Shown here: positions 23,908-58,921 of the stretch, piece by piece
How positions within the stretch are numbered: the first letter of the stretch is position 1
How the letters are laid out: every line of letters begins with the position of its first letter
DNA from: Acidimicrobiia bacterium
GTDB lineage: Bacteria > Actinomycetota > Acidimicrobiia > Spongiisociales > UBA11373
Direction of reading: 5' to 3'
Assembly: GCA_035464675.1 (NCBI GenBank)
Contig: DATHSA010000033.1
Location: 1,403 to 65,402 of the forward strand
DNA: 64,000 nucleotides
Position numbers and translations under genes: made by a program
Notes under the pieces: generated by a model
Databases searched by the model: none
The model's input: the letters and a program-made list of their open reading frames with translations, nothing else
What the model was told of the DNA's origin: nothing

Positions 23908-24150
23908 TTACCCCACACTCCCGTCGGAATCATGTTCATGGATGAACGTCATGAGCCGCTCTGCGAGTTCCGGAGGCATCTCCTCACGGCAACACTGACG
24001 AATCCGCGACTTGAGCGCCTCTTCGAACCGGAAGCCCTCGCCGCACGGCGGGCAACGTCGAAGGTGCCACCGAATCCGGACGCGGCGCACCGCGGTCGTC
24101 TCGCCGTCGATGAACTCGTACATCTGGCTGTGCGCCTCGTGGCAATTCAT
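23908..24150 (-). CDS. rshA: Zinc-associated (ZAS) redox-sensing anti-sigma factor, RsrA/RshA-like, 80 aa
   Basis: Start ATG 24150 overlaps the sigma factor stop (ATGA). MYEFIDGE and H-x3-C-x2-C (HLRRCPPC) plus a downstream CC, as in RsrA. Confidence 0.85.
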
Positions 24151-24710
24151 GATCCGGCGATGCCTCGCTGCTCTGCAAACTCCCACAACGCCTTCTGGAG
24201 AGCCTTTCTTCCGCGATGCAAGCGCGACATGACCGTCCCGATCGGCGTATCCATGATGTCGGCGATCTCCTTGTAGGAAAATCCTTCGACGTCGGCGAGG
24301 AGCACCGGGATCCGGAAGATCTCTGGAAGGGACTCCAGGGCCCCCTTGATGTCATCGTCCACGATCCGATCGAGCGCCTCCTCTTCGGCACTCCTCTCGG
24401 CACCCCCCGGACCCTCCTCCCCCATCCGCTGATACAGGTAGAGATCCTCCAGTTCCCCGAGCTCCACTTCGGTGGGCCGTCGGGTCTTGCGCCGATAGCG
24501 GTTGATGAACGTGTTGGTGAGGATCCGGTACAGCCAGGCACGCAGGTTGGTCCCAGCCTGGAACGTGTGATATCCGCGGTACGCCTTGAGCAGTGCCTCC
24601 TGGAGCACGTCCTCCGCGTCGGCAGGATTACGCGTCATCCTGAGCGCAGCCGAGTACAGCTGCGGGAGGAACTCCTGCACATCGTCTTCAAAGGTGGCCT
24701 GGTCGGCCAT
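24147..24710 (-). CDS. sigH: ECF sigma factor of the SigH/SigR group, 187 aa
   Basis: Sigma-70 region 2 ([15 protein letters not shown]...) and region 4 ([25 protein letters not shown]). Coupled to the ZAS anti-sigma gene. Confidence 0.85.
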
Positions 24711-24750: not shown

Positions 24751-24825
24751 TGGAGCCGGAGCGGGGATTTGAACCCCGGACCTGCTCATTACGAGTGAGC
24801 TGCTCTACCCCTGAGCTACTCCGGC
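24751..24825 (-). tRNA. tRNA-Thr (anticodon CGU), CCA encoded
   Basis: Reverse complement is GCCGGAGTAGCTCAGGGGTAGAGCAGCTCACTCGTAATGAGCAGGTCCGGGGTTCAAATCCCCGCTCCGGCTCCA. It folds as a cloverleaf: 7-bp acceptor, D arm GCTC/GAGC, anticodon loop CTCGTAA, T arm CGGGG/CCCCG. Confidence 0.95.
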
Positions 24826-24836
24826 GTGAGGCGGGA

Positions 24837-24861
24837 ATGGTAGACCGTTGCCCGTTGCCCG
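24837..24861 (-). promoter_or_regulatory. Putative tRNA-Thr promoter: -10 TACCAT (24842..24837) preceded by two GGGCAAC heptamers (24845-24861)
   Basis: Minus strand reads CGGGCAACGGGCAACGGTCTACCATTCCCGCCTCAC, then the mature tRNA 5' end. Confidence 0.35.
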
Positions 24862-52588: not shown

Positions 52589-52789
52589 CGGGCAGGGGGC
52601 GGCGGAGACAGCGGGCGAGCCCGCGGCGGCTCCTCAGCCCACGTACGCCCCGGGACCCTCACACACCCATGCCATCCTCTCCGCGACCTGCTCACCCTCC
52701 GGCCTCGGCCCACGGACGTACCGGGTCGGGCCGGCCTACTCGTACTCGAAGAGCCGCTGCCGGGCGCGTCGTGGGCCCTTGGCCCGGTC

Positions 52790-52795
52790 TACCGT
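52790..52795 (+). promoter_or_regulatory. Putative -10 box TACCGT (context TCTACCGTTCT), 31 nt upstream of GTG 52827
   Basis: The 10-mer CTACCGTTCT is identical to that upstream of msrA (58273-58282). The leader contains a GAGGAG SD. Confidence 0.3.
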
Positions 52796-52826
52796 TCTCA
52801 GACGACACCACCGAGGAGCGGCGGAA

Positions 52827-57416: not shown

Positions 57417-58193
57417 ATGGAGGCCGCATTCTTCGATCTCGACAAGACGGTGATCGCCCGATCGTCCACCCTGGCGTTCACCGGTCGGCTGTACAAGGCG
57501 GGGATGCTCCGCCGGCACACACTCATCCGCGCCGGCATGGGGCAGCTGATGTACATGCTGTTCGGAGCCGACGAGGACCAGCTGGCGAAGGCACGCGACG
57601 CCATGCTCCAGCTGACCAAGGGGTGGGACCGCGCCGAAATCGAGCGAATCGTCGAGGAGGCGCTCGAGGAGGTCGTCGCCCCCATCGTCTACGCCGAGGC
57701 CCTCTTCCTGATCGACGAGCACATGCGGGAGGGGCGCAAGGTGTTCATCGTCTCGGCCAGCCCCCACGAGGTGGTACATCCACTCTCGCGATACATCGGT
57801 GTCGAAGACGTGATCGCCACCCGGGCCAGGGTGGACGGGGAGGGTCGATACACCGGAGAGGTGGAACTCTATGCCTACGGGCCCGACAAGGCCAACGCTG
57901 TCCGGGCGGTGGCCGAGGAACAGGGTATCTCCCTCGAGAACTCGTACGCCTACTCGGACAGCGCCACCGACATCCCCCTGCTCGAACTGGTCGGACATCC
58001 CCATGCGGTGAACCCCGAAAAGGAACTCCGGGCCGTGGCCGAGGAGCGGGGCTGGCCGATCCTGGAGTTTCAGCGGCAGGTCAGCCTCACCGAGCGCCTC
58101 ACCCGGCCGGTCCCCCTCATATCGGGTGCAACGGTCGCCGCCGTGATCGGAGCGGCGATCGCATGGGTGCTTCTGCGGAAGAAGCGCGGGTAG
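57417..58193 (+). CDS. HAD-IB family hydrolase (SerB-like, Rv3661-like) with C-terminal TM segment, 258 aa
   Basis: Motif I FFDLDKTV, motif IV YSDSATD. Divergent from the tad operon. Confidence 0.85.
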
Positions 58194-58259
58194 CCCGTCG
58201 CCCGTCGCCGGTCACCCGTCCCCCACAGCCGCGGGGAGCCGGGGCTGGGGACCGGGAAC
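58193..58259. repeat. Heptamer-array element: GCCCGTC GCCCGTC GCCGGTC ACCCGTC CCCC (58193-58224), spacer, GCGGGGAGCCGGGGCTGGGGACCGGGAAC (58231-58259)
   Basis: Read directly. Starts at the last base of the HAD stop codon. The G arm has four G3-4 tracts with 2-4 nt loops. Confidence 0.9.
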
Positions 58260-58280
58260 ACCGCTCCCCCACCTACCGTT
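58254..58280 (+). promoter_or_regulatory. SigH/SigR-type promoter for msrA: GGGAACA-N16-CGTT
   Basis: GGGAACA (58254-58260), 16-nt spacer, CGTT (58277-58280). ATG follows at 58289, giving a near-leaderless transcript. Matches my recollection of the GGAAT-N18-GTT / GGAACA-N16-17-CGTT consensus. msrA is a classical thiol-stress regulon member and sigH-rshA is in this window. Confidence 0.5.
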
Positions 58281-58288
58281 CTAGAAGC

Positions 58289-58921
58289 ATGTTCCGATCC
58301 AAGTCAGAGATGATCTCCGCCTCCGACGCCCTCGAGGGGCGCTCCGAGGCGATCCCCACCACCGATACCCACTTCGTCAATGGCAATCCCATCCATCCGC
58401 CGTTCCCGGAAGGGATCGAGACCGCCGTCTTCGGGATGGGCTGTTTCTGGGGGGCCGAGAAGCTCTTCTGGGAGACCCCCGGCGTGTACAGCACGGCCGT
58501 CGGCTACGCCGGCGGCTTCACCCCCAATCCCACCTATGAGGAGGTGTGCTCCTCGCTGACCGGGCACACCGAGGTGGTGCTGGTCGCCTTCGACCCTGAG
58601 AAGGTCTCCTACGACCGGATCCTCGAGCTGTTCTGGGAGAACCACGACCCCACCCAGGGAATGCGCCAGGGCGCCGATCGGGGCACCCAGTACCGCTCGG
58701 CCATCTACACGCAGTCCGACGAGCAGGTCGATGCCGCCAAGCGCAGTCGCGACATGTTCCAGGGGGCGTTGAAGCAGTCCGGAATGGGCGAAATCACCAC
58801 CGAGATCAAACCGCTCGGCGAGTTCTACTACGCCGAGGGCTACCACCAGCAGTACCTGGCGAAGAACCCGAACGGGTATTGCCCGGATCATTCGTGTGGA
58901 GTCCGGTTTCCGGGCGCCTGA
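58289..58921 (+). CDS. msrA: Peptide-methionine (S)-S-oxide reductase MsrA, 210 aa
   Basis: Internal ATG 58289 of ORF 57623..58921. Active site [10 protein letters not shown]-terminal GYCPDHSCG. Confidence 0.93.

Follow-up and report, generated by a model that had tools for sequence, protein, structure and literature searches.

A probable SigH/SigR-type promoter upstream of msrA in an order of uncultured Acidimicrobiia

The msrA locus

The stretch of DNA analysed here, 64,000 nucleotides of contig DATHSA010000033.1 and called the window in what follows, comes from an uncultured Acidimicrobiia bacterium and carries, directly upstream of msrA, what is probably a promoter of the SigH/SigR type. 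The metagenome-assembled genome (MAG) to which the window belongs measures 2.13 Mb in 83 contigs with 68% GC, and gene calling with a codon-usage model gives 2094 genes and a coding fraction of 91%. Upstream of msrA lies a HAD-IB hydrolase gene on the same strand (57417-58193, plus strand; Pfam PF12710, 1.2e-32; TIGR01490, 182 bits). Its TAG stop codon occupies positions 58191-58193, and msrA starts 95 nt further on. The msrA gene itself (58289-58921, plus strand) encodes 210 amino acids with matches to Pfam PMSR (5.9e-64) and TIGR00401.

The spacer between the two genes, read directly from the plus strand, is CCCGTCG CCCGTCG CCGGTCA CCCGTCC CCC ACAGCCGC GGGGAGCCGGGGCTGGGGACC GGGAACA CCGCTCCCCCACCTAC CGTT CTAGAAGC ATG. 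The presumed -35 element GGGAACA occupies positions 58254-58260, with its core hexamer GGAACA at 58255-58260. It is followed by a C-rich spacer of 16 nt (58261-58276), the sequence of which is not conserved among relatives, and by the presumed -10 element CGTT (58277-58280, with GTT at 58278-58280), in which the GTT is invariant in relatives. Eight more nucleotides lead to the msrA ATG at 58289-58291. An earlier note on this DNA had described GGGAACA-N16-CGTT and the 8 nt that separate it from msrA, and both its coordinates and its distances are exact. In the notation of the literature the site is GGAACA-N17-GTT: the -35 hexamer agrees with GGAAYR, and the -10 element with a GTT preceded by C or G. 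A scan of positions 57900-58500 for sigma-70 and terminator consensus sequences returned nothing relevant, and a search of Rfam gave only a chance match.

Conservation of the promoter at msrA loci

Of 41 genomes belonging to the same order, 39 have an identifiable msrA, and 30 loci were retrieved for comparison. GGAAC-N17-19-GTT stands immediately 5' of msrA in 25 of these loci. In the loci of the 29 relatives, about 200 kb in all, there are 27 matches in which GGAAY and GTT are separated by N18. Of these, 23 are located within 80 nt before msrA, compared to 0.05 expected by chance (P ~1e-53). GGAAC and GTT are invariant in all 23 sites while the spacer sequence varies freely; 22 of them have a purine at position 6 of the -35 element, and 20 have C or G directly before GTT. 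A weight matrix built from the relatives' msrA sites alone ranks the site of the window first in the genome. The HAD-msrA synteny is kept in at least 12 relatives, as found by tblastn of the HAD protein in the msrA loci.

Outside the group, the motif is rare. In labelled genome records used as a control, it is present within 150 nt 5' of msrA in 1 of 42 non-actinobacterial loci. Among the msrA loci labelled as Actinomycetota, 9 of 38 have it, and these are mainly from Acidimicrobiia; the best labelled relatives are likewise Acidimicrobiia MAGs. The strict motif is mostly absent 5' of the most similar msrA genes in Micromonospora, Pseudonocardia, Rhodococcus and others. These data therefore do not allow the conservation across the order to be extended to the broader actinomycetes.

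Within the window alone, GGAAY-N18-GTT occurs three times, compared to 1.34 expected, which is not above chance. By this count the msrA site could be a fortuitous match that has no function. Such a coincidence has next to no probability, given the conservation at the msrA loci and the top score of the site in the weight-matrix ranking. Three independent lines, namely the positions of the motif in the genome, its conservation at msrA and the control outside the group, argue that the site is functional. GGAACA-N17-GTT most probably serves as a SigH/SigR-type (ECF12) promoter of msrA, of the class read by extracytoplasmic function (ECF) sigma factors. The probability of this reading, which is based on sequence comparison, is put at roughly 0.77. 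The same proposal in the earlier note is upheld by the exact agreement with the consensus, the conservation throughout the order, the presence of the motif at thioredoxin genes and the occurrence of sigH-rshA in nearly all relatives.

Distribution of the motif in the genome

Genome-wide, GGAAY-N18-GTT has 54 matches, 21 of which are intergenic, compared to 9% expected (P = 3.5e-9). Fifteen matches lie within 150 nt 5' of a gene on the same strand, and the mean at control spacings is 3.1. The same count ranges from 1 to 6 for N14-17 and N20-22 and is 7 for N19. The genes that follow the motif encode two thioredoxins, the HesB and NifU proteins of Fe-S assembly, an M48/HtpX protease and a DksA-type zinc finger protein, as well as a SigE-like ECF sigma factor and a group-1/2-type sigma factor of 321 amino acids. 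TlpA-like and NHL-type redoxins, identified by eye on the basis of sequence motifs, are also found behind the motif; for the one that was submitted to Pfam, no redoxin match was returned. The thioredoxin orthologue is preceded by GGAATR-N17-GTT in 25 of 29 relatives. The form GGAAYR-N17-GTT is now calibrated for the annotation of MAGs of this order.

The two sigma genes behind the motif are situated on other contigs. The SigE-like gene (contig C18, 22804-23304, minus strand) is accompanied by an adjacent gene for an anti-sigma factor resembling the zinc-associated anti-sigma (ZAS) family and is preceded by GGAACT-N17-GTT. The gene for the group-1/2-type sigma factor (contig C67) is preceded by GGAATC-N17-GTT. 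The presence of the motif before both genes suggests a cascade similar to that of M. tuberculosis, in which SigH acts on sigE and sigB.

The sigH-rshA locus

The earlier note had also placed a sigH-rshA pair at positions 23908-24710 of the window, and matches to the corresponding models bear this out. The sigma gene (24147-24710, minus strand) is an orthologue of sigH/sigR and reaches 252.1 bits with the SigH_actino model TIGR02947, just over the cut-off of 251.55. The anti-sigma gene (23908-24186, minus strand), an rshA/rsrA homolog, reaches 64 bits with the RsrA model TIGR03988, again just over the cut-off (62.5), and its product aligns from residue 14. RshA carries the ZAS motif HxxxCxxC in the form HLRRCPPC. 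The true start of rshA is likely the ATG at 24150, which overlaps the sigH stop codon as ATGA. SigH orthologues are encoded in 39 of 41 relatives with 63-93% identity and RsrA in all 41, and the two genes are always adjacent.

A further copy of the motif, GGAAGA-N17-GTT (24187-24212, minus strand), is embedded in the coding sequence of sigH, where it is read as GGA AGA ... TTG within the HRGRK...AL motif of the protein. It is found in 30 of 30 orthologues and lies 36 nt 5' of the likely rshA ATG. AGA makes up 2.1% of the arginine codons of this genome, and TTG 5.8% of the leucine codons. At this place all 30 orthologues use AGA and 29 use TTG, while the adjoining synonymous sites are variable; the arginine that precedes AGA is encoded by five different codons. 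Other ECF paralogues with HRGRK lack GGAAGA-N17-GTT. This conservation of rare codons is the mark of nucleotide-level selection for a putative promoter. The embedded motif is probably a SigH-dependent promoter of rshA, which would provide negative feedback. As the motif inside sigH is conserved, the SigH system of this lineage would use this class of motif.

Upstream of sigH itself, GGAA-N18-20-GTT is absent from the 260 nt preceding the gene in all 30 genomes, and positive autoregulation of sigH was rejected on this ground. In the region 24751-24861 (minus strand), a tRNA-Thr(CGT) gene, seen in this genome only, is located 40 nt 5' of sigH, and a -10-like hexamer TACCAT and a short (GGGCAAC)2 array come before the tRNA gene. 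As no SigH-type motif is found 5' of sigH, the gene may be co-transcribed with tRNA-Thr from a housekeeping promoter.

The 3' part of the rshA coding sequence contains GGAACT-N18-CGTT (23945-23971, minus strand), which 20 of 30 sigH-rshA loci share in the same position. The motif is located 70 nt 5' of an open reading frame (ORF) that encodes 64 amino acids, is rich in Cys and His and has no Pfam match. This copy could be a promoter or a mere reflection of the conservation of the protein.

The msrA start and the overlapping sigma-A-type hexamer

The region between CGTT and the msrA ATG, CTAGAAGC, has no GGAGG and no other Shine-Dalgarno (SD) sequence. Conservation of the N-terminal sequence MF(R/G)xK fixes the position of the start codon. 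In seven msrA orthologues, namely those of four members of this genus and at loci L016, L020 and L027, GTT is separated from ATG by 8 or 9 nt and there is no SD sequence; the remaining relatives have leaders of 15-33 nt, most of them with GGAGG. The same distance of 8-9 nt from GTT to ATG is seen at four further candidate targets of this genome. From this layout we infer that the msrA mRNA is leaderless, with +1 at the A of the ATG (58289). Within the order, one and the same promoter-gene unit would thus have alternated between a leadered and a leaderless form.

Leaderless genes are frequent in this genome. Of the 1264 genes with free upstream DNA, 347 have a TANNNT hexamer 6-10 nt before the start codon, where the background amounts to about 4 per position, and only 371 have an SD-like 4-mer. 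The commonest hexamers are TACCCT, TAGCCT, TAACCT, TACCAT, TACGCT and TACCGT. The last of these is present upstream of msrA (58274-58279, plus strand), 9 nt before the ATG, and overlaps the ECF -10 element.

This hexamer raises the possibility that msrA is transcribed by sigma-A only, from TACCGT, as a constitutive leaderless gene in which GGAAC and GTT go unused. TACCGT is frequent among the start-proximal hexamers just described. The related sequence CTAC[CG]GTT occurs 25 times in the genome, 17 times in intergenic DNA, and most copies are followed by a start codon after 6-30 nt and have no GGAAY -35 element. In the relative G005 (locus L006), msrA has just TACCAT, 7 nt before its ATG, and GGAAC and GTT are lost. 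The invariance of GGAAC and GTT at a fixed spacing in 23 relatives is difficult to reconcile with this explanation, as sigma-A needs no GGAAC and most of these sites have no TANNNT at this place. The hexamer is retained in 7 of 24 msrA sites, in which the surrounding spacers are variable, and is missing from the other 17; the leaderless orthologues at L020 and L027 have no TANNNT at all. It follows that the ECF promoter is the conserved, primary element, and transcription by sigma-A only is very improbable. In G005, where a (GCGAATY)4 array precedes TACCAT, msrA seems to have come under a housekeeping promoter of the leaderless type.

A combined arrangement is conceivable in this genus, although we hold it somewhat less probable than its opposite. 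The 8-mer CTACCGTT might be a composite -10 element, of which sigma-A reads TACCGT, and SigH reads CGTT together with GGAACA. If so, both holoenzymes would fire at one leaderless +1, giving a basal and a stress-induced expression of msrA. Such an element would be part of an order-wide SigH circuit that has no canonical autoregulatory motif before sigH, includes in this genome the tRNA-Thr gene directly 5' of sigH, and obtains its negative feedback from the rare-codon promoter of rshA.

The TACCGT hexamer also accounts for a sequence that recurs in the window. The 10-mer CTACCGTTCT occurs exactly twice, at 52789 and at 58273, compared to 0.02 expected. The second copy (52789-52798, plus strand) lies 28 nt 5' of the start of a DUF937 gene and lacks a GGAAY where the -35 element would be. 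Both its place before the DUF937 gene and the lack of a matching -35 element agree with the earlier description. The three congeners yielded no DUF937 gene, and two distant orthologue loci are without the 10-mer. The recurrence is explained better by the TACCGT content than by a shared SigH element; the DUF937 copy is probably a sigma-A-type -10 element (TACCGT) of a leadered gene.

Identity of the sigma factor

The sigma factor that reads the msrA promoter is, with good probability, SigH. The main competitor is another ECF sigma factor, which would act on the promoter instead of SigH or alongside it. A candidate is the SigE-like protein encoded on contig C18, which best matches mycobacterial SigE (203 bits, below the cut-off) and whose gene has its own GGAACT-N17-GTT promoter; there are about nine others. 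In M. tuberculosis the promoters of SigE and SigH overlap, and some are read by both (PMC4803200). At position 6 of the -35 element a purine is preferred by SigH and a pyrimidine by SigE in the same organism (PMC4803200). A purine stands at this position in nearly all thioredoxin sites, as it does in all msrA sites of the relatives except one. The set of targets, moreover, is of the thiol-redox type, and sigH itself bears the conserved rshA motif. Of the sigma factors, only the one encoded in the window scores above the cut-off of the SigH model and has an RsrA-type anti-sigma factor as its partner. Recognition by a different ECF sigma factor is unlikely in the light of these data.

Several points weigh against the assignment of the msrA promoter to SigH. 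Besides the number of matches in the window and the lack of a canonical motif 5' of sigH, both mentioned above, these are: 1) the genome encodes about 11 ECF paralogues, including the SigE-like one, whose promoters are expected to be similar; 2) the purine rule for position 6 derives from M. tuberculosis and is not universal, as several thiol genes of this genome carry GGAATC at -35; 3) 48 other genes carry TANNNT at 9 nt before the start, and sigma-A could transcribe msrA too; 4) no canonical motif was found 5' of trxB (C38:22336). The trxB gene is situated behind genes for a SigM-like ECF sigma factor and a membrane protein.

Combining these data, we infer the sigma factor, the stress induction and the start point of the msrA promoter, and the process of msrA activation can be outlined as follows. 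SigH (24147-24710, minus strand) would be set free by its zinc/cysteine anti-sigma factor, RshA (23908-24186, minus strand), when the cell is under thiol-oxidative stress. The complex of SigH and RNA polymerase would then bind GGAACA and GTT and start transcription at or beside the A of the msrA ATG (58289). The product would be a leaderless msrA mRNA that is translated without an SD sequence. MsrA would subsequently repair oxidised methionines using thioredoxins, the genes of which have the same type of promoter.

Comparison with known systems

The SigR promoters of S. coelicolor have the form GGAAT-N18-GTT, and sigR is autoregulated via sigRp2. The SigR-RsrA system prefers GGAAT at -35, whereas the msrA sites described here always have GGAAC. 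Kim et al. are said to have found, in 2012, that msrA, msrB, trxA/B/C and genes of proteolysis are conserved SigR targets across actinomycetes.

The msrA system has the same optimal architecture and the same kind of ZAS anti-sigma factor as M. tuberculosis SigH (Sharp et al. 2016). The M. tuberculosis consensus, GGAAYR-N17-GTT, was established by chromatin immunoprecipitation sequencing and 5' rapid amplification of cDNA ends, and 19 of 25 promoters have a spacer of exactly 17 nt (PMC4803200). The sigma factor responds to thiol and heat stress, is held by the ZAS anti-sigma factor RshA, and has a regulon that comprises thioredoxins, msrB, sigE and sigB; at some of its targets the start points are no more than 5 bp away from the start codon (PMC4803200). 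Two differences stand out. M. tuberculosis sigH is positively autoregulated, whereas no canonical motif precedes sigH in the 30 genomes. In addition, msrA is not listed among the M. tuberculosis targets (PMC4803200); in the uncultured Acidimicrobiia MAG it is a putative target with a predicted leaderless start.

The consensus sequences of M. tuberculosis, S. coelicolor and C. glutamicum are quoted together in PMC3489674. In C. glutamicum, msrA (cg3236) is up 6.6-fold in a delta-rshA strain (PMC3489674). Its sigH gene is transcribed from housekeeping promoters, and rshA has its own SigH-type promoter with the -35 element TGGAAGA (Busche et al. 2012, PMC3489674). This layout is shared with GGAAGA-N17-GTT inside sigH of the window. 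The C. glutamicum consensus differs from the sites found here in its looser spacer of 16-19 nt and its A/T-rich extension of the -10 element, GTTgaa (PMC3489674).

The leaderless sigma-A promoters of Actinobacteria, with TANNNT about 7 nt before the start, are another point of reference. They share with msrA the hexamer, which is TACCGT 9 nt before the ATG, and the absence of an SD sequence. At msrA, in contrast to those promoters, the hexamer overlaps an ECF -10 element, and a conserved GGAAC -35 element is present as well.

The link between msrA and SigH is expected biology, msrA being a known member of the SigH/SigR regulon. Four points are modestly new: the promoter is conserved throughout an order of uncultured Acidimicrobiia, msrA would have changed between a leadered and a leaderless form, the -10 element may be composite, and rshA probably has a promoter embedded in rare codons. 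With the predicted sites, the SigH/SigR thiol-stress regulon (trx, msrA and the rshA feedback) reaches across an entire order of these uncultured bacteria with small genomes. As the regulon is present in this order, its core wiring would be ancient within Actinomycetota.

The heptamer array between HAD and msrA

Immediately after the HAD stop codon there is a direct repeat with a period of 7 nt, the C arm (58193-58224, plus strand), in which Tandem Repeats Finder (TRF) detects 4.6 copies of GCCCGTC. An inverted-repeat search yields an imperfect inverted repeat at 58208-58255 (plus strand) with arms of 15 nt that are 80% complementary and a minimum free energy of -35.8 kcal/mol. Its 3' foot reaches into the first G's of GGGAACA. 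In the earlier note, GGGAACA had been taken as the terminal unit of a heptamer array, at the end of its G arm, so that the array would double as promoter material. If this were correct, the array would supply or create the -35 element, and its turnover would make or tune the promoter. The position of GGGAACA directly after GGGGACC and the overlap with the hairpin foot speak in favour of such an origin, and in G003 and G005, too, arrays adjoin the promoter region of msrA.

The comparison does not bear out this idea. In the HAD-msrA spacer, TRF finds the C arm only and no G-arm array; the G-runs of the G arm begin at 58233, 58241, 58247 and 58254, with spacings of 8, 6 and 7 nt. The predicted hairpin at 58194-58260 is no better than that of shuffled sequence (z = -0.69 and +0.48). 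Three congeners (L002, L003 and L004) keep the order HAD-hairpin-promoter-msrA. The heptamer units of the congeners are unrelated, being NNTCAAG in G001, GGCCNAC in G002 and CCCGTTN/GGGTAAC in G003. Their hairpins are strong (z = -3.7 to -5.2) and stop 14-26 nt short of GGGAACA; in G003, 12 nt separate the end of the array, which is out of register, from GGAACA. GGAACA remains invariant in relatives whose upstream sequence differs entirely or has no array. The promoter is therefore older than the abutting array and independent of it. The proposal that the -35 element derives from the array is largely refuted by this comparison, and its probability is very small, lower even than that of transcription by sigma-A only.

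The hairpin/heptamer element (58193-58255) is probably a separate, fast-evolving terminator or insulator of the HAD gene; its reading as a terminator is drawn from the hairpins of the congeners, not from the copy in the window. In the congener spacers, the hairpin structure and the period of 7 nt are kept and the sequence of the unit is replaced. The conspicuous heptamer repeats of this genome are not to be called promoter parts on the ground of adjacency alone. The promoter spacer CACCGCTCCCCCAC (58259-58272) and the end of the C arm CACCCGTCCCCCAC (58213-58226) are alike in 12 of 14 positions. This likeness is probably compositional, and the spacers of related msrA promoters are C-rich too.

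Other matches to the motif

The msrB gene (contig C81, 2699-3058) is preceded by a perfect extended -35 element, GGGAACA, at about 2620-2650, but GCT stands in the place of GTT. This site may be a weak SigH promoter. On contig C68, at a plus-strand index of about 3740, a palindromic GGAAC-N16-GTTCC presents the motif on both strands. It is situated between an ORF of 71 amino acids and an ABC transporter gene.

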